A stretch of DNA of 64,000 nucleotides from an uncultured Gemmatimonadaceae bacterium (GCA_963829055.1 CAWHHI010000017.1:64001-128000), one strand, 5' to 3'. Positions 1 to 62,839 are shown, counted from the stretch's first letter. The notes: generated from the sequence alone by a model not told the origin. A program made the numbers and translations.

Positions 1-761
1 TCCGTTGCAACGACGGATCCGAGGCGCACCTGACGTTCATGGCGGCCATCGGAACGCCGGGCGAGTTCGTGCGCTCGTGCAACCAGGAGCAGAGCGTGAA
101 GGTCGGCCCGGCGACGCCGCCGAACTCGCCTAACGGCGGCGGCCGGCGCATCATCCCGGACGCGGCGTGCGTGCAGCAGTTCCTCGTCATGAACGACGGC
201 AACAGCTCGGACTTCGGCTCAGGCTTGCACGAGAGTTGGCAGACGTCGAACGACATCAGGACGGCCGACGGTCGCTCGATCGCGTCATTCGATCCGTACT
301 TCCAGGTCAACTTCCCGAGCCGGTACTACGACCCTGCCCTGCCCGGCATCACGGCCGGCCTGTGGACCTTTGCTTCCTCCGACGACGCGCGCGCGGGCGG
401 CGCGTGCCAGGAGTCGATCCGGAACGGCGCGACGGCCGGCGTCGCATACGACGACCCACGCTCGGCATTCAACGGCGTCGAGCGGTTCATCGACGTCAAC
501 TCGATTCGTATCGACAACCGCGACGGTCCGGCGGTGTGGTACACGAACCCGTTTGGCCGAGGCGGCCGAACGGAGCCGTTCCCGGGCTCGGTCCGGCAGG
601 TGCTCTCGAAGGTGAACAACAGCGCACTCCGGATCTCGGGCCCTGGCTTGGGCTTCGATCGATTCTACGGCGGCGCGAAGACGCACGCGCCGAACCCCGT
701 CAGTGCGAGTCAGACTCGAGTCAGACGTCGGAACGATCAATCGAGTCAGACTCGAGTCTGA
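1..761 (+). CDS. Hypothetical protein, 5'-truncated by the window edge
   Basis: Frame open from position 3 (RCNDGSEAHLTFM...) with GC3-rich codons; the tail after ...KTHAPN runs into the repeat at 707-765. Confidence 0.65.
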   Translation, partial: RCNDGSEAHLTFMAAIGTPGEFVRSCNQEQSVKVGPATPPNSPNGGGRRIIPDAACVQQFLVMNDGNSSDFGSGLHESWQTSNDIRTADGRSIASFDPYFQVNFPSRYYDPALPGITAGLWTFASSDDARAGGACQESIRNGATAGVAYDDPRSAFNGVERFIDVNSIRIDNRDGPAVWYTNPFGRGGRTEPFPGSVRQVLSKVNNSALRISGPGLGFDRFYGGAKTHAPNPVSASQTRVRRRNDQSSQTRV

Positions 762-765
762 CCCC
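707..765. repeat. GAGTCAGACTC-type short palindromic repeat
   Basis: Two GAGTCAGACTCGAGTC units; perfect 18-bp palindrome GTCAGACTCGAGTCTGAC at 745-762. Confidence 0.75.
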
Positions 766-900
766 GTCTTCCGGGACGATAGCACGTCGCGCTCCGACAG
801 CCGTCGTTCGAAAGAACGTGGGACGAACCGGCCAGGTATGGAAACCCCGACATGGGGTCGCGCCGTAGAGGAGGGACTCTGATCCCGCCGAGGCCGGAGC

Positions 901-3330
901 GTGCATCTATCTCGTGGGGTGGTAGTTCTTGGATTGCTGACCGCTGCCTTTGCTGGCCATACCCGTTCACTGATTGCTCAGGCGGCGCAGACCGACGGCC
1001 GAGCCCGCGCCGACTCCGCGCGCACGCGCATCGTGCGCCCCGAGCGGGCACGCCAAACGCCAAGGCGCAGACCGGACGCGTCACCGTGGCACTCCCGCCG
1101 CGGGCGGCTGCCCGACCTGGAACCTGCCATCGCCGCGGCCGCGTACCGCGATGCACGAGCGCGCGAGATCATCGACCACGCCCGCCTCGCCCGCGTGCGC
1201 CAGGACTCGACCCTAACGAGCTACGACGCGACGGTGAAGCAGCGCCTCTCGGCCGGCCTCAACGTCAAAGCGATCGGCCGCGACCGGCTGCTCTTCCGAT
1301 CCGAGCTCGCCGCACGCGTACGGTGGAACCAGGCGAACCGCGTGTGGGTGGACGTCCTCGGTGCGCGCACGGCAGTCCCTGTGTCGTTCGCCGGAGTGAA
1401 GGTGCTCACCGGCATCGCCGAGCTCGTCCCGATTCCGTACTTCGCCGGCAGCGAGCGGCTGATGTGGTGGGTCAACATGGACGAGGACAAGGATGACGAC
1501 GAGGACATGTTCTCGTACGTGCACCCGCTCGAGCGTGGCGCCGAGGCGGTCTACGAGTACCGCTCCGGCGACTCCGCTCTGATTCGTCTGCCGGGCGGCA
1601 AGGAAATCTCACTGCGCGAGGTGACCATCCATCCGCGCGAGGCGAGTCCCGACCTGATCGTCGGCTCGCTGTGGTTCGAGGCGGCGGGCGGGCAGCTCGT
1701 GCGCGCCGCATTCAAGCCCGCGGCACCGATGGACATGATGAAGGTCATTGGCGAGGACTCGTTCGAGGACGTCCCGGCGCCGATACGTGCGACCTTGCTC
1801 ACGCCGGCCGAGTTCACGGTCGAGTCGTTCACCATCGAGTACGGACTCTACGGAGAACGTTGGTGGCTGCCGCGTTCGCAGACGGCGCGCGGCGAGATGC
1901 ACATGGGGTTCACTCGCTCGGTCGCGACCATCGATCAGAGCTTTCGCTACGCCTCGGTAAACGGCACCGACTCGCTTCCCACCGTCCCTGCGTCCGCGCG
2001 GCGATTCGGAGCGGACTTCGGCAAGGATGTCGGGACCGTCGTCGGCGGCGTGGTCGATGGCGTCGTGCCGGGGAAGCAGTTCAAGCGACGCGATGACACG
2101 CTCGACTGCGCGAAGGGCGACACCGCGGTGCACCGCGAGCGTCGCGGCGACGTTCGCATGACGATCAGCATGCCATGCGACACCGACGCGCTGATCCACT
2201 CGCCAGAACTGCCGAAGTCGATCTTCGACGCAGGCGAGGAGCAATTCGGTCTCGCCGATGCGCGTGCGCTGGCGAAGGATCTCGGGCTGGATACCGAGCT
2301 GGCCGAGTTGTCAGGCTCATCGTCGTCATCGACGACGACGACGGTCTCGTACGGCTGGCGGCGCGGCCTGATGCGGTACAATCGAGTGGAGGGTCTCTCG
2401 GTCGGGGCGTTAGGCGAGCGCGCGCTCGGGAAGCGCTACGACGGCAGCGCGCTCGTGCGTTTGGGGACCGCGGACCTCATGCCTAACGTCGAGCTGCGCG
2501 TCGCCCGTGGTGACGAGCGTCGGTCCATTGGCCTGACGGGATATCACCGCCTCGACAGCGCGAACGACTGGGGAGACCCATTCGGCATCGGTGGATCGCT
2601 CTCGGCGCTCGTGTTCGGTCGCGACGAGGGCTACTACTACCGGAGCTCGGGTGTGGAGATGACGGGAACGCGAGCGCCGGAAGCGTGGTCGAGCATCACG
2701 TGGCGCGTGTTCGTGCAGCGCGAGCACGACGCGCCCGCCGAGACGGACATCTCGCTGCCGAACGCGTTCCGCGGCGCGACGTTCGAGCCTAACGTGACGG
2801 CGATTCCCGCCAGCGAAGGTGGGGCGAACGCTCGGCTCCGAGCCGCACACGGGCTCGACCCGCGCGGCCTTCGCCTCTCCGCCGACCTGCGCGCCGAGGC
2901 AGCCGCGGGCACGTTCGACTACACGCGTGTGGCCGCGGACTTCACGGCGTCGCGGTATCTGTTTCGCAATGTCGGGCTGGCGCTCATGGGCGGCGCCGGT
3001 ACAAGCGGAGGAACGCTCTCGCCGCAGCGGGAGTGGTTCATTGGGGGAACGCATACGGTTCGCGGATTTGCGCCGGGAACGTTGACGGGCGACTCGTACT
3101 GGCTCGCGCGCGCCGAGCTCGGGTTCGGCGGCTCGGTCATCCGGCCCATTGTCTTCTATGACGCGGGCTGGGCGGGATCTCGCTCGGAGTGGAGTCGATC
3201 GTATGGAAACATTCGTGGCGCCGGCGCGGGGCTGTCGTTCCTCGATGGATTGGCGCGGATCGATCTCGCTCGCGGCGTAGACCCGCGCACGGTGTGGCAC
3301 GGGCATCTGTATGTCGAGGCTTCGTTCTAG
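901..3330 (+). CDS. Outer-membrane protein with C-terminal BamA/TamA/ShlB-like beta-barrel
   Basis: Signal peptide; RYNRVEGLSVG segment; C-terminal FIGGTHTVRGF, FYDAGWAG and RIDLARG motifs; terminal Phe. Confidence 0.8.
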   Translation: MHLSRGVVVLGLLTAAFAGHTRSLIAQAAQTDGRARADSARTRIVRPERARQTPRRRPDASPWHSRRGRLPDLEPAIAAAAYRDARAREIIDHARLARVRQDSTLTSYDATVKQRLSAGLNVKAIGRDRLLFRSELAARVRWNQANRVWVDVLGARTAVPVSFAGVKVLTGIAELVPIPYFAGSERLMWWVNMDEDKDDDEDMFSYVHPLERGAEAVYEYRSGDSALIRLPGGKEISLREVTIHPREASPDLIVGSLWFEAAGGQLVRAAFKPAAPMDMMKVIGEDSFEDVPAPIRATLLTPAEFTVESFTIEYGLYGERWWLPRSQTARGEMHMGFTRSVATIDQSFRYASVNGTDSLPTVPASARRFGADFGKDVGTVVGGVVDGVVPGKQFKRRDDTLDCAKGDTAVHRERRGDVRMTISMPCDTDALIHSPELPKSIFDAGEEQFGLADARALAKDLGLDTELAELSGSSSSSTTTTVSYGWRRGLMRYNRVEGLSVGALGERALGKRYDGSALVRLGTADLMPNVELRVARGDERRSIGLTGYHRLDSANDWGDPFGIGGSLSALVFGRDEGYYYRSSGVEMTGTRAPEAWSSITWRVFVQREHDAPAETDISLPNAFRGATFEPNVTAIPASEGGANARLRAAHGLDPRGLRLSADLRAEAAAGTFDYTRVAADFTASRYLFRNVGLALMGGAGTSGGTLSPQREWFIGGTHTVRGFAPGTLTGDSYWLARAELGFGGSVIRPIVFYDAGWAGSRSEWSRSYGNIRGAGAGLSFLDGLARIDLARGVDPRTVWHGHLYVEASF

Positions 3331-3653: not shown

Positions 3654-4956
3654 TCACGCGCCCATCGTTTGCACTCGGCGGAGCAGCGCGGCCGCCTGGC
3701 TCGGGGCCGGGCCGTCGATCAGGTCGAAGGCCAGGGCTACCTCCAGCGCCTGCTGCACCAGCTTCACGTTGCCGCGCGTCCGCGCGCGGCGGAGAACGAT
3801 CGTCAGCAGCAGCGATGCGAGGGCGTCGCGTTGATCCGGCGCGAGGGCGACCAGCGGCTCGACCCAGCACGGACTCGAGCCGTCATCACCGATGAGTGCC
3901 ATCACGGCCGCGGTGGCGCCGCGCGCAGTAACGCGCCGGTCGTACGATGGCCGGCGGCTCGCGGCCCGGGGCCAGCGCCGCCGCGCAGAGGGCGCCCATC
4001 ACGTACGTGCTGTGATAGGACGTCTCCAGCGCGATTCGCGCTCGATCATCACCCGCGAACGGCCTGTACCGCGTCTCGCCTAACGCGGCGCCCGGCAGGA
4101 AGCCGAGCGTGTCCTGGAGATTGGCGACGATGCTGAACGCGAACGTCGCGGCCGGCGTCCACGCGAGCCCGAGCATCGGCCACGTCATGAGTACTTCCGC
4201 CGTCAGGTCGAAGTCGTTCGAGTCGAGGCTCAACGCCAGCGCGGCATCCGCGTCCGCGGTAATGGCCGCTGGCGACCGCAACCCGGCAATGCGTTGGCGG
4301 CCCACGTCGCTGGCGTACATGACGGCACGCGTGAACGAGCAAATGTCGTGACGTGTAGCGCCAAGCGCGTCGATCGGCCTGCCGAGCATGGAGTCGGCGA
4401 CGAGATCGGCATCGCGACGCGTGGGTGGCTCGACGGCGCTCCAGAGCCGCGCCAGCCACGCCTGTTCCAGCACGCGATGCGGCAGCCGTTCGGGTCCGAA
4501 GTTCGGACCCATGGCCAGGCTCCGCGAAAGCAGCGCGTCGACGCGTGGGTCGGGGAACCCGAGGCGACTGAGGATGATGTGTCCGATCGAACGGTCGCGA
4601 GCCGTGGCCGGATCGAGGCACATGCCGGCAAGGACATCGTCGTGGCGCGCGTGCGGAAGCAGCAGCACGGCGAGCGTTTCGAATCGCTCACGGATCCGTT
4701 CGTCCAGCGTCGAGAGCGGCTCGACGCAGAGCAACAGCATTGCCGTATCGGAGACGGCCTTCTCGCGCATCCGTCCAGCAACGCTGACGTCTCGCGTAGC
4801 GGGGACAGGCGCTGCGGTCGTGTCGGCCATGGACCGAACCATTCGCAGCGCCAGATCGAGGACATCCACGACTCTGCGGATCAGATCCGCATGATCCCAG
4901 CGAACGACAGGATTGGCCGGCATGGACACGGCCGCTGTTGCGTTAGGCAATGACAT
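3654..4956 (-). CDS. DUF6895-like alpha-helical protein, frameshifted near 3905-3930
   Basis: ORFs 3886..4968 and 3654..3905 join. Motifs FTRAVMYASD, DFDLTAE and SYHSTYVMG resemble DUF6895 as I recall it (unverified). Start at 4956 or 4923. Confidence 0.55.
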
Positions 4957-5104
4957 ATGCCTGCACATCGCTGGGGGAGCCCGTCATCCCTTCACCCGGG
5001 CATCGTATTGCGACAGGAGCGTCCCGGTGCCCGAAATCGATCGCATTGCTGCACACGAACGCTTCGGTGGCTTCCCGGTGGCGTTCCGTTCGTACGTCCG
5101 GCAT
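4943..5104 (-). CDS. 53-aa peptide MPDVRTERHREATEAFVCSNAIDFGHRDAPVAIRCPGEGMTGSPSDVQAYVIA
   Basis: AGGAGG 8 nt upstream of the ATG; its last codons overlap the ATG at 4956 of the downstream gene; too short for the ORF track. Confidence 0.6.
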   Translation of the reverse strand: MPDVRTERHREATEAFVCSNAIDFGHRDAPVAIRCPGEGMTGSPSDVQAYVIA

Positions 5105-5261: not shown

Positions 5262-5640
5262 AACGGCAACTGCAACTGCAACTGCAAGACAGGATGGCCA
5301 GGATTGGCAGGATTAACACGATGACGGCCTCACGTCGAGCGGCGACTCGGCGGGGCCTAACGAATGTGGGAACAGCATCTCAGCGAGAGTGGCGTCCCGA
5401 GCAGCCGTTCCTCTCATACCTGGGCTCGTTGCGCGAGGCCGAGCGCGAACGGAGGCTCTGTTCAATCCTGTCCATCCTGCCAATCCTGTCATGCAGTTGC
5501 AGTTGCCGGACGTTTTCGAAACGGCTCTCGGGGAGAGTAGCATCCCGAGCGGCCGTTGCCCTATTCCCGGCTCATTGCGACAGCAAGCGTGGATGTAGAG
5601 CCGTCATCCTGTAAATCCTTGCCATCCTGGCTATCCTGTC
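5262..5640. repeat. GACAGGAT/ATCCTGTC and (GCAACT)n inverted tandem-repeat element
   Basis: GCAACTGCAACTGCAACTGCAAGACAGGATGGCCAGGATTGGCAGGATT (5266-5314) is mirrored by AATCCTGTCCATCCTGCCAATCCTGTCATGCAGTTGCAGTTGCC (5464-5507); a further arm lies at 5606-5640 and a related arm at 24020-24047. Confidence 0.75.
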
Positions 5641-6058: not shown

Positions 6059-6796
6059 ATGCCTAACAAGCCATCACGGATCTTCCAGCTGCCGTGGCGC
6101 ACACGCAATCAGATCGTGCGCGACGTGGACGCCGAGCTGGCCTTCCACCTCGAGATGCGCGTGAGCGAGCTCGTGGCCGCCGGTGCCGATCCCGAGCAGC
6201 GCGCGTCGCCGAGCAGGCGAGGAGTTCGGCGATCTGGAATTCACGCGCGCGTACTGTCGTGAGGTCGACGAGCGAACGAATCGCGAGACCTGGCTCGCGG
6301 ATACGCTGACCGAATGGCGCCAGGATATCCGCTATGCGTGGCGCACCATGCGGTTCGCGAACCCGTCGTTCGCCATCGTGTCGCTCGTGACGCTCATGCT
6401 GGCAATCGGGCGAACACCGCGATTTTCAGCGTCACGCGTGCGGTGCTGCTCAGTCCCCTGCCCTACGGACGCCGTCGTCACTCGTGGCGGTGTACGAAAC
6501 GCCACGCTCCGCGCCCGCGAGCCGCAATCCGCTCTCGGTACCGAACCTCGTCGACTACAGGGCGGCACAGCACACGCTGACGGGGCTGGCCGCGTATGAC
6601 GATCGCTCGATCACGTGGCGTCCGACGATCGGACCCCGGTTGCTGACGAAGCATGCTCGGTACGGGGCAACCACGGTTCGAGCTGTTGCAGGTCGCCGTG
6701 GCGTTAGGCCTGGTGAGCGTGGTCGTCGTCGCGTGTCTGGTCCCGGCAGCACGTGCCATGCGCGTCGATCCCATCACGAGCCTGCGCGCCGAGTAG
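6059..6796 (+). pseudogene. ADOP permease remnant: N-terminus joined to the C-terminus, about 2 kb missing
   Basis: VDAELAFHLEM, WRQDIRYAWR and ANTAIFSV in shifting frames, then directly ACLVPAARAMRVDPITSLRAE*. Confidence 0.7.
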
Positions 6797-7826: not shown

Positions 7827-8806
7827 CTAGTTCCAGCGCAGGCCGCGCAGCTGGTCGAGGTTCAGGTTGCCCCCCGAGAGCACGACCGCGACGCGCGAGC
7901 CCGCCGGCAGCCTAACGAGCCCGTGCAGCAGCGCCGCGACCGGCGCCGCCGCCGCGCCTTCGACCACGAGCTTGCAGCGCTCCATCACCCAGATCATCGC
8001 GTCGAAGATGTCGCGGTCGGGCAGCGCCACGATCTCGTCCACGAACCGCTGCACCACCGAGAAGTTGAGCTCACCCGACGCGACGCACGCGCAGGCCGTC
8101 GATGATCGTGCGGCAGTCGATCGTCTCGAGCCGTCCGGCTTCGACGCTGCGCTGCATCGCCGGGCCGTCCGACGACTCCACGCCGATCACGCGGACCTTC
8201 GGGTTGTGACTCTTCACCGCCATCGACACGCCGGCGATGAGTCCGCCGCCGCCGATCGGCACGACGATCGCGTCGAGCTCCGGCCAGTCCTGCACGATCT
8301 CCAGGCCTAACGTGCCCTGCCCCGCGATGAGCTGCTCGTCGTCGAACGGGTGCACGTAGGTCAGCCCTTCCGTGCGAACGAGCTCCTTCGCCTTCTCGTT
8401 CGCTTCATCCCAGATGTTGCCGTGCAGCACCACCTCGGCACCGTAGCCCTTGCGTCGCCGCGATCTTCGCCGGCGTCGCGTTCGTGGCCATGCACACCAC
8501 GGCACGAATGCCGTGGATCTTCGCCGCCAGCGCCACGCCCTGCGCGTGATTGCCCGCCGACGAGCAGACGACGCCGCGTCGCTTCTGCTCTTCGGGCATG
8601 AGCGCGAACTTGTTGAGCGGTCCGCGGATCTTGTACGACCCGACGCGCTGGAAGAGCTCGGCCTTGAGTCGCACGTCGAAGCCCGTTCGCTCGCTCAGCT
8701 GACGCGACGTCAGCAGCGGCGTGTGCTTGATGTGCTCGGCGATGCGGGCACGCGTCTCCTGGAAGTCGGAGAGCGTCAGCGCGAAGAGATCGGCGGTTTG
8801 CGTCAC
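7827..8806 (-). CDS. PLP-dependent threonine/serine dehydratase (short TdcB/IlvA type), two frameshifts
   Basis: KAELFQRVGSYKIRG (PLP lysine), SAGNHAQG, HPFDD, GQGT, PIGGGGLI and LSGGN spread over three ORFs. Confidence 0.88.
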
Positions 8807-9842: not shown

Positions 9843-10305
9843 CTATTTCTTTCGCCGCGGCCGTGCACTCGATCTCGATCAGTGCGCCTGGCACCACGAG
9901 GCCCGCGACGCCCACCGTTGTGCGTGCCGGAGGATCGTTCGGGAAGAACTCGCGGTAGACCCCGTTCATCGCCTGGAAGTCCTTCACGTCGGCGAGGAAC
10001 ACGGAGCACTTCGCGATGTCCTGCATCGTCCCGCCGGCGAGCGTCACCGAGGCCTTGATGTTCTCGAGCGCCTGACGCGTCTGGCCCTCGATCCCGCCCT
10101 CCGCGAGTCCGCCACCACCCGGCTTCGTCCCGAGCGCGCCGGAGAGAAAGACGATGTCGCCGACCTTCACGGCGGTCGACAGCACGCCCGGGCGGGCGTT
10201 AGGCGCGTTGATCACCTGCTTGGCGGCCTGGCCGAATACCGGCGCGGCGCTGAACATGCCCGCGATGACGGAGCAGGCAACGATCGCTCTACGATTTCTC
10301 TTCAT
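9843..10305 (-). CDS. RidA/YjgF-family protein with N-terminal signal peptide
   Basis: VFLSG, GQTRQALENI, DFQAMNGVYREFF, PPARTTV and LIEIEC motifs. True stop probably TAG at 9843 after a homopolymer slip; the ORF track extends it to 9718. Confidence 0.88.
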
Positions 10306-10371
10306 GGGAGGCACCTCGTTAGGAGAACTCTTGTCCAATGGATTCCTTGTGGATTTGTATTCACGCATCTT

Positions 10372-24004: not shown

Positions 24005-24150
24005 GTGATTGAACCGCGTGACAGGATTGCAGGATTGACAGGATTGGACGGCGGTGCCGCGCGGTGCGTGACATTGCCAACGTATCGCGCCTAACGGTCG
24101 TCAGGCCATATTACCCGAGCGCAGCCGACTCGTGAACAGGAATCCCTCGA

Positions 24151-27537: not shown

Positions 27538-27555
27538 GACCCGCGGCCATACCGC

Positions 27556-46557: not shown

Positions 46558-46612
46558 ACCCGCTCGGAAGCGAGTGGCGTGACTTCGACCGCCGCTCACG
46601 GGTTGTATTCCC

Positions 46613-51204: not shown

Positions 51205-52458
51205 TTGAGCACCGTCACCACCCTGGCCCACGACGCCCCGTTCTCAATCCGGCGAACGGCCATCACGCGAGGTGCGACGTACTTCGTCGCCTGGACCGTC
51301 GTCGCGTTCACGACGTCCGAGCTGCAGTACGTCGCGCAGCCCGCGAGCAACGCGCAGCCGTACGGCCGCCTGTTGCGGATGGCGCTCGCGAGCTGCTGGC
51401 TGTGGGCCGCGTTCACCCCCGCGATTCTCGCGTTCGCGCGACGGATTCGCATCGATCGCACGAACTGGCCGCGTACGCTTCCGGTGCACCTCGCCGCCGC
51501 CGCTGCCGCGACGTTCCTGGACGTCTGGCTCATGCACGCGATCATGCCGTTCGTGAGCCCGGACGCGCCGATGAATCGCGTCCCCATTCACATCGTCTTC
51601 CTGCGGCAGCTGTTCCTGTACTCGGTCTGCTACTTCGTGATCATGGCGCTCGCGCACGTGCGCTACTACGCGGGCCTCTCGTACGAACGCGACCTCCGCG
51701 CCGCGCAGCTCGAGGCGCAGCTCTCGGCCGCGCGCCTAACGGCGCTCCAGGGACAGCTCCGGCCGCACTTCCTGTTCAACACGCTGAACATGATCGCCGA
51801 GCAGGTCTACACGGACCCGGCTGGCGCGGACGCGATGCTGACGCGGCTCGGCGTGTTGTTGCGGTCGTCGTTCATCGAGACCGACCGCGAGCGCGTGCCG
51901 CTGCATCGCGAGCTGGAATTGCTCGAGAGTTACGTCGAGATCATGCGTGCGCGCTTCCATGGACGCCTGACATTCGAGCTCGACATCGATCCGGCGACGC
52001 TCGACGCGTTGGTCCCGCGGTTCATGCTGCAGCCGCTCGTGGAGAATGCCATCAAGCACGGCGTCGAGCCTCGTGAGGAAGGTGGCCGCGTGACCGTGAC
52101 TGCCCGTCGTCAGGGCGATTCGCTGACACTCGACGTCCGCGACAACGGCGACGGGCTCGCCGGCGCGATCCGCGAAGGCACCGGCGTTCGCAATACGCGC
52201 GAGCGGTTACAACATCTCTATGGCATCGCGCGTCAGCAGTTCGCGCTCGCGCCCGCACCGGGCGGCGGCACGGTCGCATCGCTCGTCATCCCGTTCGACA
52301 CGGACGACGGCCCGGCGGACAGCTACACGGCGACGGCACCGGGCACCGCGTCGGACACCCGAGGTGCCACGGTTCCCGGCCGTGCACCCCTGCCCTCATC
52401 GCCTGACGTGCCAGCGATGCCGGGTGTCGGGCCTGCGTTCCGGCGAGGCGTGTCATGA
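51205..52458 (+). CDS. LytS/YehU-type sensor histidine kinase
   Basis: TM helices; QLRPHFLFNTLN; LQPLVENAIKHG; GTGVRN. Confidence 0.92.
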   Translation: MSTVTTLAHDAPFSIRRTAITRGATYFVAWTVVAFTTSELQYVAQPASNAQPYGRLLRMALASCWLWAAFTPAILAFARRIRIDRTNWPRTLPVHLAAAAAATFLDVWLMHAIMPFVSPDAPMNRVPIHIVFLRQLFLYSVCYFVIMALAHVRYYAGLSYERDLRAAQLEAQLSAARLTALQGQLRPHFLFNTLNMIAEQVYTDPAGADAMLTRLGVLLRSSFIETDRERVPLHRELELLESYVEIMRARFHGRLTFELDIDPATLDALVPRFMLQPLVENAIKHGVEPREEGGRVTVTARRQGDSLTLDVRDNGDGLAGAIREGTGVRNTRERLQHLYGIARQQFALAPAPGGGTVASLVIPFDTDDGPADSYTATAPGTASDTRGATVPGRAPLPSSPDVPAMPGVGPAFRRGVS

Positions 52459-53447: not shown

Positions 53448-54560
53448 ATGTCCGCGCTGAAGTTCATTACCGTTGTTGGCACTACGGCCGTCGCCGTTCT
53501 TGTGCCCCTCTGCCACGCCATCGCGCAACCGCCGGCGCCGCGACACGCGGTGCTCGCCGTGCCGTCCAAGTATCCGTCCATTCAGGCGGCGATCGACAGC
53601 GCCATGAACGGCGATACCGTGCTCGTCGCGCCCGGGCGGTACTACGAGAACATCCGCTTCAAGGGAAAGGGCATCGTCGTCACGAGCCAGTTCGCGCGCA
53701 CGCGCAACGAGGCGGACATCGAGCGGACCATCATCGACGGCAGTCGGCCGACGCACCCCGATACGGGGACAGTCGTTAGGTTCGTCAACCAGGAGGACTC
53801 GACGGCGGTGATCCAGGGATTCACGATCACCGGCGGCACGGGCACCGTGTGGCTCGACGCGAAGGACGTGACGTACTTCCGCGAGGGCGGCGGGATCCTG
53901 TGCGAGCTCGGGTCGCCGACGATTCGCTTCAATCACATCGAGAACAACAGCGCGGTCTCGAAGGCGAAGAACGTGAAGGGCGACTCGTTGATCAGCGCCG
54001 GTGGCGGCGCCATCCGCTGCGGCTACTCCGAGCCGACGATCACGAACAACGTCATTCGCGGCAATCACGGGCGCTACGGCGGTGGCGTCGTGCTGTTCTA
54101 CTCCGCCGGCATCGTGAAGAACAACCTCATCGTCGACAACGACGGCGGCGAGGACTTCGGTGGCGCCGGGCTGTGGATCGTCGGTGGGTTGAGCTATCGG
54201 CTGTCGACGCTCGTCGAGCACAACACGATCGTCAATAACCGATCGATGACACCGGATTCCGCGCGCGGCATGAAGGGCCGCGGCGGCGCCATGATCGCGG
54301 CCGGCACGAAGGTCGTGTTCCGAAACAACATCGTGTGGGGTAACGCGCAGAGCGCGGGCAATCAGGTGAGCTACTCCCCGGCGACGCCGCCCGAGATGAG
54401 CAACAACATCGTGCAGGGTGGTCTGCCGGGCACGGGCAATCTCGATAAGGATCCGCAGTTCGCCGACATGACACGCTTCACGTTGAAGCCGGATTCGCCG
54501 GCGAAGCGCGGCGCCGGTTTCGAGCTCGGCGCCTATGGTGGCGTGCCGCGTACTCGCTGA
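53448..54560 (+). CDS. Secreted right-handed parallel beta-helix (pectin-lyase-like) protein
   Basis: VPSKYPSIQAAID..GDTVLVAPGRYYENI; repeated GGGI/NNxIxxN; GNLDKDPQF. Confidence 0.85.
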   Translation: MSALKFITVVGTTAVAVLVPLCHAIAQPPAPRHAVLAVPSKYPSIQAAIDSAMNGDTVLVAPGRYYENIRFKGKGIVVTSQFARTRNEADIERTIIDGSRPTHPDTGTVVRFVNQEDSTAVIQGFTITGGTGTVWLDAKDVTYFREGGGILCELGSPTIRFNHIENNSAVSKAKNVKGDSLISAGGGAIRCGYSEPTITNNVIRGNHGRYGGGVVLFYSAGIVKNNLIVDNDGGEDFGGAGLWIVGGLSYRLSTLVEHNTIVNNRSMTPDSARGMKGRGGAMIAAGTKVVFRNNIVWGNAQSAGNQVSYSPATPPEMSNNIVQGGLPGTGNLDKDPQFADMTRFTLKPDSPAKRGAGFELGAYGGVPRTR

Positions 54561-55032: not shown

Positions 55033-56859
55033 ATGCACCCACTGCTCCGCACGATCCTAACGCTCTCGCCGGCCCTTCTTTCGGCGGCGCGCCTCGACCT
55101 CGGCGTCGCGCCCAGGGCAGCCCCGACGAGCGTCATTCGCGTCAATCAGCTCGGGTACCTGCCTAACGCTCCCAAGACGGCCGTGATGTGCGTCGTCCCC
55201 GACTCGCTGGGCGGCGGTGGCACGTGGCTCCCACCCGCGTCCGTGCCCTTCACCGTCGAGGACACCACCGGTCGCCGCGTGCTCGCGCCGCGCACCGCCA
55301 GCGCCGCCGGTCAATTCGGACCCTGCGCACAGACGTACCGGCTCGACTTCTCGTCGCTTCGAAAGCCCGGCCGCTACCACATCGTCTCCGCTGGCGTTCG
55401 CTCGCCCGTCGTGCGCATCGACGCCCGCGCGTACGCCGGCGCCGCGGACACGCTCCTCTACTACATGCGCCAGCAGCGCTCGGGCTACAACCCGACGCTC
55501 AAGGATTCCGTTCACAAGCGCGACGGGATCATCGTCGATCACCCGACGCGCACCGGTGAGTTCATCAACGTGAGCGGCGGCTGGGCCGACGCCGCGGACT
55601 ATCTGCAGTACGTCACGACGTCCGCGACCGCCACCTACGTCATGCTCAAGGCGCGTCACGAATTTCCGCGCGCGTTCTCCGACAACTTCGCCGCGACCGG
55701 TCTCCCGGGCGCGAATGGCGTCGACGACGCGCTCGACGAGGCGCGCCATGGACTCGAGTGGCTGCTGCGCATGTTCCCGGACGACTCGACGATGTTCAAC
55801 CAGCTCGCTGACGACCGCGATCACACGTACTTCGATCTGCCGACGTCCGACTCCGCGGACTACGGCTGGGGCAAGGGCAAGGAGCGCCCCGTGTATCCGT
55901 GCACGGGCAAGCCGCAGGGGCTTTTCACCGGAAAGAATCGCGCGACGGGCTACGCGTCCACGGCCGGCAAGTACGCGGCGACGTTCGCACTCGCCTCGCG
56001 TGCGTATGCGACCACGGACCCCGCGTTCGCGCGTCGGCTCCGCGAACGGGCGCTGGCGGCGTACGCGTTAGGCGTGAAATACCCCGGCAACTGTCAGACG
56101 GCGCCCGGCAAGTCGCCGTACTTCTACGAAGAAGAGAACTGGGCGGATGACATGGAGCTCGGAGCGGCCGAGCTCTACGCGCTGACGCGCGAACAGCGGT
56201 TTCTGCGGGATGCGTTAGGCTACGCCGCGAAGGAGCCGGTCACGCCGTGGATGGGCGCCGATACGGCGCGTCACTATGAATGGTACCCCTGGATCAATCA
56301 CGGCCACGACGCGGTCTGGCGCGTCGGTGACGCGTCGGCCAAGCGCCTCATGGCCAGCTACTACCGCCAGGGCCTCGAGCGTGTAGCCGCGCGCGCGAAA
56401 ACCAACGGCTTCCGCGTCGGCATCCCGTTCATCTGGTGCTCGAACAATCTCATGTCGGCGTTCGCGACGCAGGCGCTGATCTATCGTCGCATGACGGGCG
56501 ACGAGCGCTTCCGCGAGTACGAGGCAGCGGCGCTGGACTGGCTGTTCGGCGCGAACCCGTGGGGCACGTCGATGGTGATCGGCCTGCCGTGGTCAGGCAC
56601 CTGGCCACACGATCCGCATTCGGTGCTCGCCAAGCAGCTTGGCGTGGAGACGCAGCTCGGCGGTCTCGTGGATGGCCCGGTCTATCGTTCGATCTACGCC
56701 AACCTGCGCGGCATCCGCCTGTTCGACCCGGACGAGTACGCGCGGTTCAACACGGGCTTCATCGTCTATCACGACGACCTGGGCGACTACTCGACGAATG
56801 AGCCGATCATGGACGGGACAGGCATGCTCACGTACCTGCTCGCTGCGCTCGCGCCGTGA
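55033..56859 (+). CDS. Glycoside hydrolase family 9 with N-terminal Ig-like domain
   Basis: IRVNQLGYLP..PKTAV; GGWADAADY; DDMELGAAELY; GANPWG; DYSTNEP. Confidence 0.9.
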   Translation: MHPLLRTILTLSPALLSAARLDLGVAPRAAPTSVIRVNQLGYLPNAPKTAVMCVVPDSLGGGGTWLPPASVPFTVEDTTGRRVLAPRTASAAGQFGPCAQTYRLDFSSLRKPGRYHIVSAGVRSPVVRIDARAYAGAADTLLYYMRQQRSGYNPTLKDSVHKRDGIIVDHPTRTGEFINVSGGWADAADYLQYVTTSATATYVMLKARHEFPRAFSDNFAATGLPGANGVDDALDEARHGLEWLLRMFPDDSTMFNQLADDRDHTYFDLPTSDSADYGWGKGKERPVYPCTGKPQGLFTGKNRATGYASTAGKYAATFALASRAYATTDPAFARRLRERALAAYALGVKYPGNCQTAPGKSPYFYEEENWADDMELGAAELYALTREQRFLRDALGYAAKEPVTPWMGADTARHYEWYPWINHGHDAVWRVGDASAKRLMASYYRQGLERVAARAKTNGFRVGIPFIWCSNNLMSAFATQALIYRRMTGDERFREYEAAALDWLFGANPWGTSMVIGLPWSGTWPHDPHSVLAKQLGVETQLGGLVDGPVYRSIYANLRGIRLFDPDEYARFNTGFIVYHDDLGDYSTNEPIMDGTGMLTYLLAALAP

Positions 56860-56861: not shown

Positions 56862-57432
56862 GCTGGCTGCTGGCTGCTGCTGCTGACGTTCGGGATCGCT
56901 GTCTTGTCGGCGGGGGCGTCGCGTCTCCGGCGCCGTAGGCGCTTACACGCCCTGAGCCGACGGGTACCGAACTCCGTGTACGGCTGGCTGGCTCGGCCCC
57001 GTCGTCTCGGGGCTACGCGCCAACGGCCCCTACGACGCGACACCCCCGCCTCCTGGTACGCATCCCGACCGGTCGGGGCAAGCAGCGCGCAGCACCCAGC
57101 AAGTGCGCGCCCTAACGCGTGACGGCGCCGCCCGCGAGAGGGGACGCGGCACTTGCTGCGCGCTGGGTGCGGTCGCGAATGCGTGCGTGCGGTGACGAGC
57201 GGCCGGCCACGGAGCGTGCCATGACCGGGGGCGCGGGCGCTCGGCGTAGGGGGCCTCGCGCGTAGCCCCGAGACGGCGGGGCCGAGCCACTCTCACGGCA
57301 TGGAGTTCGGTACCCGTCGGCTCGAGGCGTGTAAGCGCGTGGCCACCGGAGCCGAGTGCCCGCGCCTAGCGCCGCGACAGACTCGACCAGCCCCGCGCGC
57401 CGCAATGCCAGCACGCAGCACGCAGCACGCAG
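56862..57432. repeat. Long (about 570 bp) imperfect inverted repeat, possible structured RNA
   Basis: 56939-56978 pairs with 57299-57338; 56989-57020 pairs with 57258-57289; inner CAGCAAGTGC/GCACTTGCTG stem. Confidence 0.85.
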
Positions 57433-59309: not shown

Positions 59310-60148
59310 TCCGCGCGCTCATCGTCGACGACGAGCCGATCGCGCGCGCCGGCATCGCGAAGCTGCTCGAGGGCGAGTCGGATGTGACGGTGATCGGGGA
59401 GTGTCGGGACGGGGCAGAGGCTGTCGCGCACATCCGCGCACATCGGCCCGACCTCGTGTTCCTCGATGTGCAGATGCCCGAGCGCAACGGCTTCGAGGTG
59501 CTGGCGTCGCTCGAGCCACACGAGCTTCCGGCGACGATCTTCGTCACGGCGTACGACGAGTACGCGCTCGACGCGTTCGAAGCGAGTGCGGTCGACTACC
59601 TGCTCAAACCGTTCGACCGTGAGCGGTTCGCGCGCGCGCTGTCGCGGGCGCGCCGTTTCCTCGCCGGCGATCAGCTCGCGGTGTTCCGCGCGAAGGTCTC
59701 GTCGGTGCTGCAGACGATGCGACCGAACACTCGCCTCGTTGGCACAGGCGCGAGTCCTCGAACGGCTCGACTCCGCATCGCGCCTAACGGTGGCCCGAGC
59801 CGAGCGACGGAACGCGCGCGCGGCGGTGACAGTCGGCTCGCCATCCGGACGCGCGGGCGCATCACGTTCGTCGCGATCGGCGAGATCGAGTGGATCGAGA
59901 CGTCGCGCAACTACGTGCGCGTGCGCGCGAAAGGCGTGTGGCACACGATGCGCGAGCCGCTGTCGACGTTCGCGGGTCGACTCGACCCGCTGCAGTTCGT
60001 GCGCGTGAGCCGCTCGTGCATCGTCAATCTCGATCGCGTGCGCGAGTTCCGTCGGCAGGCGAACGGCCAGTACACGGTCCTGCTCGACGACGGCCAGCGA
60101 CTCGTGGCGAGTCGCCGCTATGGCGCGAAGTTGGCGCCTGACGCGTAG
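59306..60148 (+). CDS. LytTR response regulator
   Basis: MIRALIVDDEPIAR, FLDVQMP, FVTAYD, DYLLKPF; FVRVSRS. Confidence 0.92.
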   Translation: MIRALIVDDEPIARAGIAKLLEGESDVTVIGECRDGAEAVAHIRAHRPDLVFLDVQMPERNGFEVLASLEPHELPATIFVTAYDEYALDAFEASAVDYLLKPFDRERFARALSRARRFLAGDQLAVFRAKVSSVLQTMRPNTRLVGTGASPRTARLRIAPNGGPSRATERARGGDSRLAIRTRGRITFVAIGEIEWIETSRNYVRVRAKGVWHTMREPLSTFAGRLDPLQFVRVSRSCIVNLDRVREFRRQANGQYTVLLDDGQRLVASRRYGAKLAPDA

Positions 60149-61199: not shown

Positions 61200-61348
61200 G
61201 GAAGGGGCGGAGGGCGGGATGGCGGGAAGGCGGCAGCGAGCGGCAGCGAGGTCTCGCGACGACGCGCGCGGAGAACCGCGAATCCTGCTGCGTGCTGCGG
61301 CGCCGCAGTCCGCGCCATCCGCCTTCCGTCCTGAGCCCGTTCCTCCTT
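61200..61348. terminator. GC-rich hairpin between convergent genes
   Basis: Purine-rich GGAAGG...GGATGGCG arm after 61194 and complementary CGCCATCC...CCTTCC arm before 61352. Confidence 0.4.
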
Positions 61349-61351
61349 CCG

Positions 61352-62839
61352 CTATTGCGCGACGGGCCGCGGGAACTTCCCCTCCCTCGTCGCTGCCTGC
61401 CACGCGAAGATCGCGAAGATCATCGCCGACTGCTGCAGATCCTTCTCGCTGACACGTTCGTAGAAATCCGCGTTCGTGTGGTGCGTTCGCACGTCGTAAT
61501 CCCGGTAGTCCTTGAGCGTCGTGAAGCCCGGAATCCCCACCGCGGTAAAGCTCAGGTGATCCGTGTTTCCGATCTTGTCCACCGGATTGCGCTTCACGCC
61601 GAGCTCGCCTAACGCGCCCAGCCAGCCATCGAAGATCGCCTTGGCGCCGGCGTTCTCCTCGGTATAGAACCCGTACGTCGGCCCCATCCCTGGATCATCG
61701 TTGAGATACACCGCGATCGCGTCCCGTGCCGCCGCATCGTTCTTGAGATGCCGCTCCACATACGCCTTCGACCCCAGCAGCCCTTCCTCCTCCCCGCCCC
61801 ACAGCGCCAGGCGAATCGTCCGCTTCGGCTGCGCGCCCACCGCCTTGAGCATCCGCATTGCCTCGATGGCCGCAGCCACCGCGTCCGCGTTGTCCGTGGC
61901 GCCGGTTGCCGAATGCCACGAGTCGAGGTGCGCGCCAAGCAGTACCACCTCGTTCTTGAGTACCGGATCCGTCCCCGGAATCTCGGCGATCACGTTGTAG
62001 CCACTCGTGTCCGCCGCCTGGTACCTAACGCGCACCTCGGCCGCGAGCTTGACCGGCGTGCCATGCTGCGCCAGCCGCGCGATCATGTTGTAGTGTTCGG
62101 CCGCCATCACCACGCTCGGCACGGCATCATCCCGCGTGCCTCGGTTGCCGAGCACGAAGATGGTTCCGTGTTGGCCCTGATTCGGGCGGAGCACGAGACC
62201 GACGCCCAGCTGCTGCAGGATCGGCATCATCTCACGCACCGGCGTTAGGCCATCCGTGCGCAGCATTGGCGGTGCGCCGATGCGCACTCGCGCCTCCGTG
62301 TCGCCCGGCTGCGGACGGTCGGCCGAGATGAGCGCCTGTCCCTCCTGCGGCGGCTGCGGCAACACGATGGCGCCCTTTAGCTTCGCGCCCATCGCCTTGA
62401 TCTGCTCGGCCGTCTTGTCGCCGAGGTAGATGGGGTTCGTCGCGAGGACGCCGCGCGTCGATGGCGTCCACGCCTCCGGATAGCCCTCGAGCGGGAAATA
62501 GCGAGGCTGCGTCATCTCGAGGGTAAATTTCTCCAACGCCCAACCACGACCGAACGGGAACGGCTCGACAGCGACGTTGCTCATACCCCATTCTGTAAGG
62601 CGATCGCGCGTCCAGTCGACGGCACGCTTGAACCCGGGCGAGCCGGTGAGCCGCGGGCCGATCACGTCGGTGAGCGTGCGATAGCTCTCGAGCACACGTG
62701 AATGCGCTTGCGACTCGGCACTCAATCGCGCCATCATCGCGCGGTCGACGGACTCCTGCGCGGTGAGTGGTGTACAGATCGATGGCGCGACACCGATCGT
62801 GAGTGCGAGGGCGATACCAATCAAGGATTTGTGCAGCAT
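61352..62839 (-). CDS. Secreted M28 peptidase (carboxypeptidase Q-like)
   Basis: IGPRLTGSP, GAHLDSW..ATGATDNA, WGGEEEGLLGS, TDHLSF and HHTNAD motifs. Confidence 0.92.
   Translation of the reverse strand: MLHKSLIGIALALTIGVAPSICTPLTAQESVDRAMMARLSAESQAHSRVLESYRTLTDVIGPRLTGSPGFKRAVDWTRDRLTEWGMSNVAVEPFPFGRGWALEKFTLEMTQPRYFPLEGYPEAWTPSTRGVLATNPIYLGDKTAEQIKAMGAKLKGAIVLPQPPQEGQALISADRPQPGDTEARVRIGAPPMLRTDGLTPVREMMPILQQLGVGLVLRPNQGQHGTIFVLGNRGTRDDAVPSVVMAAEHYNMIARLAQHGTPVKLAAEVRVRYQAADTSGYNVIAEIPGTDPVLKNEVVLLGAHLDSWHSATGATDNADAVAAAIEAMRMLKAVGAQPKRTIRLALWGGEEEGLLGSKAYVERHLKNDAAARDAIAVYLNDDPGMGPTYGFYTEENAGAKAIFDGWLGALGELGVKRNPVDKIGNTDHLSFTAVGIPGFTTLKDYRDYDVRTHHTNADFYERVSEKDLQQSAMIFAIFAWQAATREGKFPRPVAQ

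Follow-up and report, generated by a model that had tools for sequence, protein, structure and literature searches.

The window (the whole 64-kb stretch of DNA that was analyzed, from genome G000 of a soil bacterium, whose assembly is 86% complete) carries the heptamer CCTAACG, read as CGTTAGG on the opposite strand, in 58 copies (34+/24-) between positions 129 and 62249. This exact recount agrees, coordinate by coordinate, with the preliminary description of the stretch. Dinucleotide shuffling of the window gave 3.34 ± 1.98 CCTAACG (maximum 10), and none of the 100 shuffles reached 58. The base before CCTAACG is usually G (44/58 window copies), as had been noticed, making the octamer GCCTAACG. 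Siblings with another last letter had been estimated at about three; there are exactly three, every one CCTAACA. No Rfam families were found in the window. The copies are listed below, with "+" for CCTAACG and "-" for CGTTAGG on the shown strand; "full" copies are preceded by G and thus read GCCTAACG.

129..135, +, full GCCTAACG
1212..1218, +, preceded by C; xxC CTA ACG in gene 901-3330
2408..2414, -, full; GCG TTA GGC in gene 901-3330(+)
2482..2488, +, full; frame CCT AAC G
2788..2794, +, full
4079..4085, +, full
4941..4947, -, full; Pro-Asn in frame, DUF6895 gene start; no stop
5356..5362, +, full
6702..6708, -, full
7911..7917, +, full
8306..8312, +, full
10197..10203, -, full; kept in 3/4 aligned congeners
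10317..10323, -, preceded by T
10803..10809, +, preceded by A; absent in 4/4 aligned congeners
11184..11190, +, preceded by C; absent in 4/4 aligned congeners
12430..12436, -, preceded by C; kept in 2/3 aligned congeners
12962..12968, +, preceded by C; congeners CCGAACG or CCGGTGG
14252..14258, -, full; kept in 2/2 aligned congeners
15515..15521, +, full; absent in 2/2 aligned congeners
17124..17130, -, full; kept in 2/4 aligned congeners
18076..18082, +, full; absent in 3/3 aligned congeners
18762..18768, -, full; kept in 1/3 aligned congeners
20584..20590, +, full; CCT AAC G; kept in 2/2 aligned congeners
22782..22788, +, full; absent in 6/6 aligned congeners
24090..24096, +, full
25627..25633, -, full; absent in 2/2 aligned congeners
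25803..25809, -, full; absent in 2/2 aligned congeners
27041..27047, +, full; kept in 5/6 aligned congeners
27555..27561, +, full; TAG stop of LytTR gene 27556-28377(-)
29100..29106, +, full
30336..30342, +, full
30661..30667, +, full
33158..33164, +, full
33838..33844, -, full
34317..34323, +, preceded by A
35584..35590, +, full
37096..37102, +, preceded by C
38675..38681, +, full
40830..40836, -, full
41295..41301, +, full
42371..42377, -, preceded by C
42813..42819, -, full
45000..45006, -, preceded by A
45817..45823, -, full; xxC GTT AGG in gene 44021-46426(+)
46161..46167, -, full; GCG TTA GGC
47594..47600, -, full; GCG TTA GGC
48266..48272, -, full; GCG TTA GGC
51735..51741, +, full; xGC CTA ACG
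53774..53780, -, preceded by A; xxC GTT AGG
55056..55062, +, preceded by T
55162..55168, +, full
56066..56072, -, full; GCG TTA GGC
56213..56219, -, full
57111..57117, +, preceded by C
59783..59789, +, full
61608..61614, +, full
62024..62030, +, preceded by A
62243..62249, -, full
6062..6068, +, tolerated variant CCTAACA; GCCTAACA 10-fold over-represented genome-wide
29852..29858, -, tolerated variant CCTAACA, counted as sibling in the window
38058..38064, -, tolerated variant CCTAACA, counted as sibling in the window

The reading frames proposed earlier for single copies mostly stand. By our own crude gene calls, all five GCG TTA GGC sites (2408, 46161, 47594, 48266, and 56066) are read as xCG TTA GGx, sites 1212 and 51735 as xxC CTA ACG, and sites 45817 and 53774 as xxC GTT AGG. 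The frame CCT AAC G was recovered at 2482 and 20584, but 12962 fits it only in an ORF and not in a called gene, because the gene there is split. Two copies were thought to supply stop codons. The one at 27555 does contain the TAG stop of a LytTR response-regulator gene (27556-28377, minus strand), but the one at 4941 ends no called gene and encodes an in-frame Pro-Asn near the start of a DUF6895 gene (3886-4968, minus strand).

The whole of G000 contains 6391 copies of the 7-mer and 5004 of GCCTAACG, for which 353 and 131, respectively, are expected under an order-1 Markov model, and 720 and 258 under an order-3 model. When all k-mers were ranked genome-wide against these nulls, a check that had been proposed, the word came first among both 7-mers and 8-mers at either order. 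GCCTAACG is present at 0.64 8-mers per kb (38-fold enrichment), and density along the contigs is fairly even (0.64-1.09 per kb). The consensus is R-C-C-T-A-A-C-G/a: the inner six letters are strict and the outer ones vary, ACCTAACG being over-represented 13-fold genome-wide and GCCTAACA 10-fold.

The word is imposed on genes against their codon habits. Synonymous codons were shuffled within each of the 6159 crude gene calls of G000 in 10 replicates, giving 347 ± 24 7-mers and 153 ± 15 8-mers, compared with 3955 and 3118 observed in the genes; for the 8-mer, this codon-aware null falls short by ~20-fold. TTA codons are not equally common outside the motif, which would have spoken for a codon effect: 1494 of the 2797 in G000 (53%) lie inside the word. 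The copies in G000 genes are spread over all four stop-free frames (1157, 749, 1490, and 543), and synonymous opportunities are saturated, with P-N-[AGDEV] tripeptides spelled CCT AAC G in 1162 of 1929 cases (60%) and [APST]-L-G spelled xCG TTA GG in 1494 of 5585 (27%). Gene stops also fall inside the word (462 of the 6159 crude genes of G000), and the proteome itself is shifted, the observed/expected ratio being 2.0 for PNA versus 1.14 for ANP.

Both orientations are used about equally in G000 (7-mers 3154:3237; 8-mers 2457:2547), also relative to genes (sense:antisense 1906:2033), and 51.7% of neighboring copies point the same way. Orientation correlates with GC skew at -0.17 over 137 bins. 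On C16, where the replichore switch is clearest among the contigs, the leading-strand split is 295:364, and we found no replichore polarity. Copies repel each other within ~200 bp, with 2.3% of spacings below 100 bp (8.0% expected) and 6.4% below 200 bp (15.3% expected), and spacings of 300-2000 bp are in excess. Flanking information does not exceed 0.16 bit at any position except -1. A dispersed repeat of the REP/MITE type was ruled out, as no conserved sequence or hairpin extends beyond the core, and inverted word pairs were not enriched in the pair-arrangement counts of G000.

Word positions turn over fast between congeners. In comparisons of G000 with congeners at 75-87% nucleotide identity, the exact 7-mer was kept in 17/50 genome-site pairs (control 7-mers, 22.9%). 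The word was present only in the relative, and not in G000, at 17 sites, and 8 of 15 sites were found in G000 alone. Codon-aware null, use of four stop-free frames, saturated synonymous opportunities, flat flanks, and fast turnover together strongly support a force that acts on the DNA itself and not on the proteins, in line with the selection at DNA level proposed in the preliminary description.

Enrichment is not confined to one assembly. The word was found enriched in all six congeners searched (for example, at 1.25 per kb in G014), in other genera, in the plasmid of a named cultured strain, and in two phage contigs. Across the phylum sample, enrichment was scored as at least twice the count of the reversed-word control. 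By this measure the family has about 13 enriched genomes in 95 (G000 counted), the next family 3 in 166, and all other groups 0 in 140. Enrichment is thus patchy within the Gemmatimonadaceae, graded, and lineage-restricted; a single genus includes the saturated G235, G292, and G396 and the nearly empty G288 (29+37 copies). No comparable alternative word was seen in ~198 kb of G288 or ~173 kb of G016, the two non-enriched relatives sampled. Replicons other than chromosomes are also filled. The finished megaplasmid (plasmid 1) of the cultured Gemmatirosa kalamazoonensis has 778 copies in 1.1 Mb (control 20), and the phage contigs G415 and G414 have 37 (control 9) and 36 (control 1), respectively; G415 also shows direct terminal repeats and hits to integrase, TerL, portal, and major head protein. 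In G000, the longest three stretches free of the word hold diverged second copies of housekeeping genes that are otherwise single-copy. The word-free contig ends are foreign DNA, and this foreign DNA lacks the word.

The best reading of these data, a tentative one, is that GCCTAACG resembles an uptake sequence and has been spread by molecular drive; from its abundance, symmetry, spacing, coding cost, turnover, and distribution, we infer uptake bias as the force. Among the options raised at the outset, an uptake signal fits best and the methylation option is weakened. The uptake machinery of natural transformation would preferentially bind the word, as shown for USS and DUS, and word-bearing alleles would enter cells and recombine at higher frequency, spreading in the population by molecular drive. 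Point substitutions create the word wherever coding permits, sometimes at the cost of an amino-acid change, and a directional force on double-stranded DNA keeps both strands at ~1 copy per 1.2-1.6 kb. The word would come to fill chromosomes and also the megaplasmids and temperate phages that co-evolve with their host.

The closest likeness is to the Pasteurellaceae USS, also short and asymmetric, present on both strands at about 0.6-0.8 per kb, lying within genes in more than one frame and at some cost to coding, spaced more evenly than by chance, lineage-restricted, and filling the host's temperate phages. PMC6776037 states that the H. influenzae USS saturates at about 750 per Mb and that Pasteurellaceae temperate phages accumulate USS. 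Unlike the USS, GCCTAACG has flat flanks without AT-rich helper segments, is patchy in its family with no dialect in the two non-enriched relatives sampled, and belongs to a host of another phylum with 67% GC, where an uptake bias is proposed. The Neisseriaceae DUS, read by the minor pilin ComP, is likewise a hyper-abundant word marking self DNA, and type IV pilus/secretin hardware and ComEC are present here as well. However, Neisseria DUS often occur as inverted pairs acting as terminators, an arrangement not enriched for GCCTAACG, and no dialect series was seen in the stretches sampled from two non-enriched relatives. To our knowledge, every member of the Pasteurellaceae and Neisseriaceae carries some dialect.

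Several observations count against an uptake word. ComEC, secretin, and HHH_3 (ComEA-type) matches occur in 5/5 genomes of the panel each (the ComEA-like match in G000 is a partial 81-aa frame only), and since both non-enriched panel genomes have this hardware just the same, it cannot account for which genomes carry the word. The contrast between G288 and its saturated genus mates would require gain or loss of a reader plus long decay, and G288 and G016 showed no dialect in the stretches sampled. The ~200 bp range of repulsion is shorter than typical uptake fragments. Moreover, saturation of phages and plasmid would also be consistent with a repair bias across the whole host or with a tag that protects self DNA, and the spelling shared with the integron attC inverse core hints at another possible reader.

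The self tag, at which a helicase-nuclease (RecBCD, AddAB) or a defense system would stop degrading DNA in the manner of Chi, is unlikely. Selection would then favor frequent copies, in both orientations, in the chromosomes, plasmids, and phages of these hosts. GCCTAACG is an asymmetric 8-letter word at about Chi density or above (the density of Chi in E. coli is about equal or lower), protection of two-ended breaks would need both orientations, and a second copy within ~200 bp would add nothing, which matches the repulsion. Saturated phages and megaplasmid and word-less foreign DNA also suit a tag. Chi and KOPS are indeed over-represented 7-8-letter oligomers read by DNA-processing motors, but both are strongly polar with replication and GCCTAACG is not, as seen from the C16 split and from neighbors that point the same way in only 51.7% of cases; the earlier argument that the lack of strand skew speaks against Chi/KOPS holds as far as tested. 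The words that are polar on C16 are others, GCTCAAG (79% leading strand) and GGGGAAG (82%). Chi words are also enriched only few-fold, far below the 38-fold found here.

Quite unlikely, in our estimate, is that a tyrosine recombinase of the integron/Xer type (IntI or a paralogue) binds the solo copies, which would be kept for a chromosomal role or as a by-product. The preliminary description knew of no described signal with this sequence; the spelling is in fact that of the inverse core of integron attC, and the claim needs qualifying, although the copies across the genome are not attC sites. An attC consists of RYYYAAC and GTTRRRY boxes around an imperfect palindrome of 57-141 bp. IntI is guided less by sequence than by the folding of single strands and by extrahelical bases, which speaks against this reading. 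The inverse core consensus given in PMC3053210 is RYYYAAC, which GCCTAAC fits. The identical R'' box GCCTAAC, plus the next G, is also seen in array elements of relatives and in arrays from the environment. In the relative G021, 26/26 array elements, among those listed, begin with GCCTAACG, and for most of the listed elements the printed stretch contains an imperfect palindrome that ends in (T/C)GTTAGGC. At eight IMG/VR loci (GC 0.31-0.64), 50 of 78 copies have GTTAG[G/A/C][C/T] 45-160 nt downstream. G000 itself has an intI at C20:208008-208985 (265.7 bits), adjoined by five attC-like sites that start G/ACCTAACG; the attC features were found only for these ~5. Unlike attC, the genome-wide copies of GCCTAACG are solo, with partner GTTAGGC boxes or palindromes no more frequent than by chance, lie inside ordinary genes, and do not track intI. 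Their R''..R' pairs at 40-140 nt number 40, compared with 29 in the reverse arrangement and ~40 per direct arrangement, and attC was accordingly rejected for them. The gene intI is found in both enriched and non-enriched genomes: the near-empty G288 gives three hits that approach or exceed the cut-off, and that of the enriched G014 is spread over three frames. Thousands of solo boxes inside genes are needed by no known role.

A repair- or methylation-driven word, in which sequence-specific mismatch correction, possibly guided by a methyltransferase at CCTAAC, would convert near-matches in whatever DNA replicates or recombines within the host, also seems rather improbable. Such an origin has been proposed for cyanobacterial HIP1 (GCGATCGC), an octamer of unsettled function imposed on coding DNA at up to ~1 per kb. 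As in HIP1, whose deviations Elhai reportedly described in 2015 as concentrated at the outer letters, change in GCCTAACG is tolerated only at the first and last positions. Phages and plasmids carry the word as densely as the chromosome does, which suits this reading, and CCTAAC resembles the motifs in which type IIG or BREX enzymes methylate adenine on one strand. However, HIP1 is a palindrome that co-occurs with matching methyltransferases, whereas GCCTAACG is asymmetric and no methyltransferase family examined tracks it; none separated the three enriched panel genomes, by presence in all of them, from the two non-enriched ones, by absence from both. PF02384, PF01555, and PF00145 had zero matches in the 86% complete G000, where the hits were limited to a D12-class gene broken across two frames and one short frame of the Eco57I family. 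Vsr was found in 0/5 genomes. Moreover, one-letter neighbors at inner positions are not depleted (793 per Mb, versus 503 in non-enriched relatives).

A site for a nucleoid-associated or chromosome-organizing protein, its regular spacing kept by selection, is also quite unlikely. Strand symmetry, the sharp 8-bp boundary, and the fairly uniform contig density would suit such a site, and the repulsion below ~200 bp with the excess at 300-2000 bp could mirror a footprint. Against this, positions are not conserved between congeners, and neither the word-less close relatives nor the word in temperate phages is explained. We know of no nucleoid protein with an exact 8-bp site at such density.

Finally, the G000 assembly contains many split genes and chimeric contig ends, the sole point that favors an artifact. 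A mobile element, a codon effect, and an RNA were each rejected as the identity of GCCTAACG. An artifactual or trivial origin (assembly error, codon or amino-acid bias, or a dispersed mobile element) is excluded with near certainty and was already refuted, because the word exceeds the codon-aware null, has flat flanks, and recurs in the independent assemblies of congeners and in the finished Gemmatirosa plasmid.

In the window, C17:64001-128000 of the source assembly, we counted 58 copies of the heptamer CCTAACG/CGTTAGG, with 34 on the forward and 24 on the reverse strand, exactly as the preliminary description had counted by hand, while dinucleotide shuffles give an expectation of 3.34 ± 1.98 copies. 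The claimed scarcity of siblings without the final G and the usual G before the heptamer were both reproduced: CCTAAC lacking a following G is found three times, always as CCTAACA, and a G precedes 44 of the 58 copies. The source assembly, a Gemmatimonadaceae genome (7.78 Mb in 20 contigs, 67% GC, 86% complete, 4% contaminated), contains 6391 heptamers and 5004 copies of the octamer GCCTAACG, the heptamer with its preceding G. A genome-wide count had been proposed as a check on the enrichment, and an order-1 Markov model predicts only 353 and 131 copies, an order-3 model 720 and 258. Under both models the word heads all rankings of 6- to 9-mers, together with its sub-words. The two models were used in place of a maximum-order ranking, which is blind here, lacking power because the sub-words are owned almost wholly by the word.

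A sequence logo of the 6391 sites shows information solely at position −1 (G 0.78, A 0.13), with flat flanks, and the unit is therefore the octamer and not a piece of a longer repeat. Tolerated variants are over-represented (ACCTAACG 13-fold, GCCTAACA 10-fold, CCCTAACG 5-fold and GCATAACG 4-fold), and by the same measure the inner letters of the word are strict in this assembly. One-letter neighbours were not depleted when compared with 0.41 Mb from relatives in which the word is not enriched over the reversed word, our control. An Rfam search of the window returned zero families, and no near-word was found inside the dispersed repeats of the window. Among the 40 listed of 723 variant places from metagenome contigs, one falls inside the word (27559, A>T in X4), which is too few for an estimate of constraint.

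The proposal that the word is governed at the level of the DNA itself was strongly supported by a codon-aware null. Crude gene calls by codon log-odds gave 6159 genes, or 73% of the source assembly. Synonymous shuffling within each gene, which kept the protein and the codon counts, including the rare codons contributed by the word, yielded 347 ± 24 heptamers and 153 ± 15 octamers, against 3955 and 3118 observed in genes. The word is thus a DNA-level phenomenon, and it occupies every one of the four stop-free frames.

Copies of the word in genes of the source assembly, by stop-free frame
CCT AAC G: 1157 copies
xxC CTA ACG: 749 copies
xCG TTA GGx: 1490 copies
xxC GTT AGG: 543 copies

Sense and antisense copies in genes number 1906 and 2033. 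Rare codons are concentrated in the motif, as the preliminary description had suggested: it holds 53% of all TTA, 18% of CTA, 12% of CCT and 7.6% of AGG codons. The stop codon of 462 of the 6159 genes is provided by the word (254 of 775 TAA, 208 of 1622 TAG). Where synonymous codons permit the word, it is used strikingly often. It spells 60% of the Pro-Asn-(A/G/D/E/V) tripeptides and 27% of the (A/P/S/T)-Leu-Gly tripeptides, while its occupancy of Arg-Leu-Thr (26%), Cys-Leu-Thr (43%) and Ala-Leu-Thr (just 1.5%) mirrors the −1 preference G > A > C. The proteome is shifted as well, with PNA and PND at 2.0 and 2.2 times expectation, compared with 1.1 and 1.0 times for the reversed tripeptides.

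Copies are spread symmetrically over the strands (3154 and 3237 heptamers), and 51.7% of neighbours share an orientation. In 50-kb bins, of which there are 137, the correlation of word skew is −0.17 with GC skew and −0.09 with gene-strand skew. Short spacings are rare: 1.0% are below 50 bp (4.1% expected), 2.3% below 100 bp (8.0%) and 6.4% below 200 bp (15.3%), with an excess at 300 to 2000 bp, so that copies show a short-range repulsion. Unusual against this repulsion, plasmid 1 of Gemmatirosa kalamazoonensis (record L382, positions 16098-16135) carries three tandem copies in 15-bp steps on one strand. In two moderately enriched genomes, strand bias of the word on the first contig (G206:C1 and G010:C1) tracks gene orientation. 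A one-strand polarity of CCTAAC on a second contig, G206:C2, was ruled out, the 180 kb there holding 27 forward and 24 reverse copies.

The closest named relatives are Gemmatimonadaceae MAGs from soil, and near-identical DNA turns up in runs from rhizosphere, soil and freshwater sediment that belong to at least 15 studies. Conservation in orthologs, put forward earlier as a check, was followed in DNA of six congeners aligned at 75-87% identity, where the exact word was kept in 17 of 50 genome-site pairs, compared with 22.9% for control 7-mers. At 17 sites the word was present only in the relative, and 8 of 15 sites were unique to the source assembly, the other genomes having the usual spellings of high-GC DNA there, for example CCGAACG or CGCTCGG. 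From these counts, word sites are continually gained and lost, and their position is irrelevant. The enrichment itself recurs in related genomes, with all six congeners enriched (1242-2569 copies per strand), and an artefact is excluded as the cause of the word.

The distribution was determined in 401 genomes spread evenly over the phylum, with the threshold set at a word count no lower than twice that of the reversed-word control. In the family, about 13 of 95 genomes reached it (the source assembly counted), as did 3 of 166 in the next family, all of a single genus, and none of the remaining 140; the majority of the sample is depleted in the word (typically 5-20 copies versus 100-200 for the control). 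The unpublished genomes G013, G078, G198 and G117 figure only as non-enriched rows of these counts. The densest genome, G014, belongs to a different genus (1.25 copies per kb). Within one genus, G235, G292 and G396 carry about 1700-2078 copies per strand whereas G288 is nearly empty (29 and 37), a contrast that could expose the reader gene through comparative genomics. No substitute word, or dialect, was found in about 198 kb of G288 or 173 kb of the likewise non-enriched G016, and none was seen in the 21-kb loci L044 and L045. Two Gemmatimonadaceae loci with 88% protein identity to a window gene are without the word. In the moderately enriched genomes G206 and G010, 43 of 62 in-gene copies use xCG TTA GGx, the frame with the lowest cost; a weaker or younger drive would be expected to fill this frame before the others.

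The word is also found on mobile DNA. Plasmid 1 of the cultured type strain G. kalamazoonensis KBS708, a finished replicon of 1.1 Mb, holds 374 and 404 copies on its two strands, versus 13 and 7 for the control; the reader question is therefore directly testable at the bench. A scan of IMG/VR for inverted pairs gave 40 loci, two of them saturated on both strands. One, G414, is a 28.5-kb phage fragment (terminase, protease, major head and tape-measure matches) with 36 copies versus 1 control; the other, G415, is a 50-kb phage contig with direct terminal repeats (integrase, repressor, TerL, portal, major head protein and endolysin matches) with 37 versus 9. A six-frame search of both with PF00589 found no integrase; the integrase match in G415 came from PHROGs. 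In Pasteurellaceae, temperate phages likewise accumulate the uptake word USS, up to about 750 per Mb, and large lytic phages do not (PMC6776037, in the part consulted). In a scan of 80 viral direct-pair loci with flanks, the most copy-rich loci carry the word mainly on one strand, and six of eight examined were not saturated phages but attC-type arrays. Of the viral loci, L245 (an IMG/VR contig, GC 0.63) has 11 and 2 octamers, nearly all on one strand, with no attC-type partner box, and in L265 (GC 0.31) the word sits within a different, AT-rich repeat unit.

By analogy with USS and DUS, the uptake words of Pasteurellaceae and Neisseriaceae, biased DNA uptake followed by recombination is the best reading of the word, although we hold it tentatively and would put it at somewhat below even. 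To our knowledge this is the sole experimentally established mechanism that makes such words. It must yield about one copy per kb, strand symmetry, even spacing and indifference to frame, as well as a coding cost, fluid positions, restriction to lineages, and sharing with temperate phages and large plasmids. Counting against biased uptake are the patchy distribution without dialects, the short range of the repulsion and the absence of any receptor candidate. The search for a reader covered three enriched genomes (the source assembly, G014 and G292) and two non-enriched ones (G288 and G016).

Families searched in the five panel genomes
ComEC: 5/5
ComEA-type HHH_3: 5/5, in the source assembly only as a partial 81-aa frame
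Secretin: 5/5
PF02384: 4/5, absent from the source assembly
PF01555: 4/5, absent from the source assembly
PF00145: G288 only
PF02086: source assembly (in two frames, split), G292 and G288
Eco57I: 5/5
Vsr: 0/5

Among intI, four DNA methyltransferase families, Eco57I, Vsr, ComEC, ComEA and secretin, no family was both in 3/3 enriched and in 0/2 non-enriched genomes. The uptake hardware is encoded, yet it does not discriminate enriched from non-enriched genomes.

A Chi-like protective self tag is unlikely. The lack of strong strand skew noted in the preliminary description was confirmed on contig C16 of the source assembly, where GC skew switches clearly near 550 kb: copies of GCCTAACG and CGTTAGGC on the leading strand number 295 and 364. 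Words of the GCTGGTGG type, considered as a replaced Chi, are 2- to 6-fold over-represented in 5/5 genomes sampled, enriched or not, and do not discriminate. On C16, gene orientation switches together with GC skew at about 550 kb, which suggests the terminus, and a gene for a Xer-like recombinase lies at 540795-541592. The most polar 7-mers of this contig are GCTCAAG, with 79% of its copies on the leading strand, and GGGGAAG, with 82%; both are candidate KOPS- or Chi-type signals.

A site for an integron or Xer-type recombinase is more doubtful still. The earlier statement that no known signal of this kind has the sequence needs qualifying: the spelling of the word is that of the start of attC integron cassette sites, eighth base included. 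In non-enriched relatives, same-strand clusters of the word with a spacing of about 550 bp are cassette arrays. On contig C95 of genome G021, 26 of the 26 elements listed begin with GCCTAACG; most are imperfect palindromes ending in (T/C)GTTAGGC in the printed stretch, and both ends pair in five of six folded. In eight environmental direct-pair loci (GC 0.31-0.64), a GTTAG(G/A/C)(C/T) box lies 45-160 nt downstream of 50 of 78 copies. The word and the downstream box in these arrays correspond to the inverse core RYYYAAC and the core GTTRRRY of attC, as given in the consulted part of PMC3053210; integrons are on record in Gemmatimonadota (PMC8618304, likewise in part). The source assembly has a small chromosomal integron outside the window, at C20:202300-209000.

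Features of the chromosomal integron on contig C20
208008-208985, minus strand: intI, 265.7 bits
202.8-207.2 kb, 3′ side of intI: about five attC-like sites, starting with G/ACCTAACG and ending with CGTTAGG/CGTTAGCC

The genome-wide copies are not attC sites: attC-like pairs number 40 versus 29 in reverse, with about 40 per direct arrangement. Moreover, intI does not track enrichment, as three matches in the non-enriched G288 score close to the cut-off or exceed it, and the enriched G014 has the gene in three frames.

We see an equally slim chance that the conserved cassette end is what uptake or capture is tuned to, the filling of genomes being a by-product. Some Gemmatimonadaceae would then have a DNA-uptake receptor or IntI-linked reader preferring GCCTAACG, the conserved attC R'' box, and would selectively draw cassette DNA from the genes available in soil; through this bias GCCTAACG would build up in their genomes as well as in their plasmids and temperate phages. 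If true, such tuning would be a mechanistic link between natural transformation and integrons and would account for the return of one spelling in lineages that are not related, and the inverse-core match is a lead that could tie transformation to cassette capture. A HIP1-like drive by repair or methylation, named after the cyanobacterial octamer, has no better prospects in our estimate; no candidate enzyme for methylation of the word was found in the source assembly, which is incomplete (86%). Least probable is a nucleoid-protein site: the repulsion between copies could reflect a footprint, and the lack of positional conservation between congeners speaks against such a site.

Our literature searches found no description of the word. 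Among the papers that contain the string GCCTAACG, those listed concern unrelated subjects, judging by titles and abstracts, and neither CCTAACG as a genome word nor a DNA uptake sequence in a Gemmatimonad context was found. The work found on natural competence in Gemmatimonads describes no word, including the consulted part of PMC7305173. The present analysis adds figures for occupancy, a test of turnover, the contrast within a genus, a reader panel with a negative outcome, the exposure of chimeric contig ends by means of the word, and a cultured strain able to settle the question. Experimentally shown DNA uptake sequences are, as far as we know, confined to two proteobacterial families; a USS-like word in Gemmatimonadota would mean that the phenomenon also occurs in a soil phylum that is abundant but has few cultured members. 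The word may also serve as a barcode for host assignment, linking phages and plasmids to hosts, for following gene flow among soil populations, and for bin hygiene, as with the chimeric contig ends flagged in the source assembly.

These ends correspond to three stretches of 31-50 kb outside the window that lack the word and lie at contig ends or close to them (C6:5440-55038, C11:1-44055 and C6:591808-623330). They encode FtsK, chorismate synthase, DAHP synthase, an M17 peptidase and anthranilate synthase, and a second copy of each such housekeeping gene lies elsewhere in the assembly at only 47-56% identity. Most likely, contigs were joined chimerically there, or the bin is contaminated with DNA of an organism that lacks the word. 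Genomic islands and prophages were also considered as an explanation of word-poor stretches; the longest three consist of this foreign DNA at contig ends, and the smaller ones hold ordinary chromosomal genes. Several window genes lie in two frames (7827-8505, 11976-14871 and 58165-60148: a PALP enzyme, a TonB-dependent receptor with the Plug separated from the barrel, and a histidine kinase that has its ATPase part joined to the following ORF). The secretin, D12 methyltransferase and ComEA-like genes elsewhere in the assembly are split too, which reflects either many assembly indel errors or many pseudogenes.

The window also contains MITE-like palindromic repeats, e.g., TGTCATTCCGAGCG...CGCTCGGAATGACA, at 26230-26420, 22220-22370 and 17200-17430, with 310, 183 and 80 BLAST hits in the source assembly and the word in none. 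The other over-represented words GGATGACA, TCATTCCGA and AGTCGAGGAA are due to these repeats, and metagenome contig depth spikes in the window bins that hold them (e.g., 26002-26668). Four large MacB/FtsX-type permease genes (about 600-900 aa) are clustered at 32888-49086 with 5641-6048; the window also has a PadR regulator as well as three LytTR two-component pairs, and such gene content is typical for Gemmatimonadota and Acidobacteriota. Finally, the stretch 20841-23452 encodes part of a LigD primase-polymerase together with an ATP-dependent DNA ligase; these are genes of non-homologous end joining, with a DNA alkylation-repair gene nearby (24151-24843).
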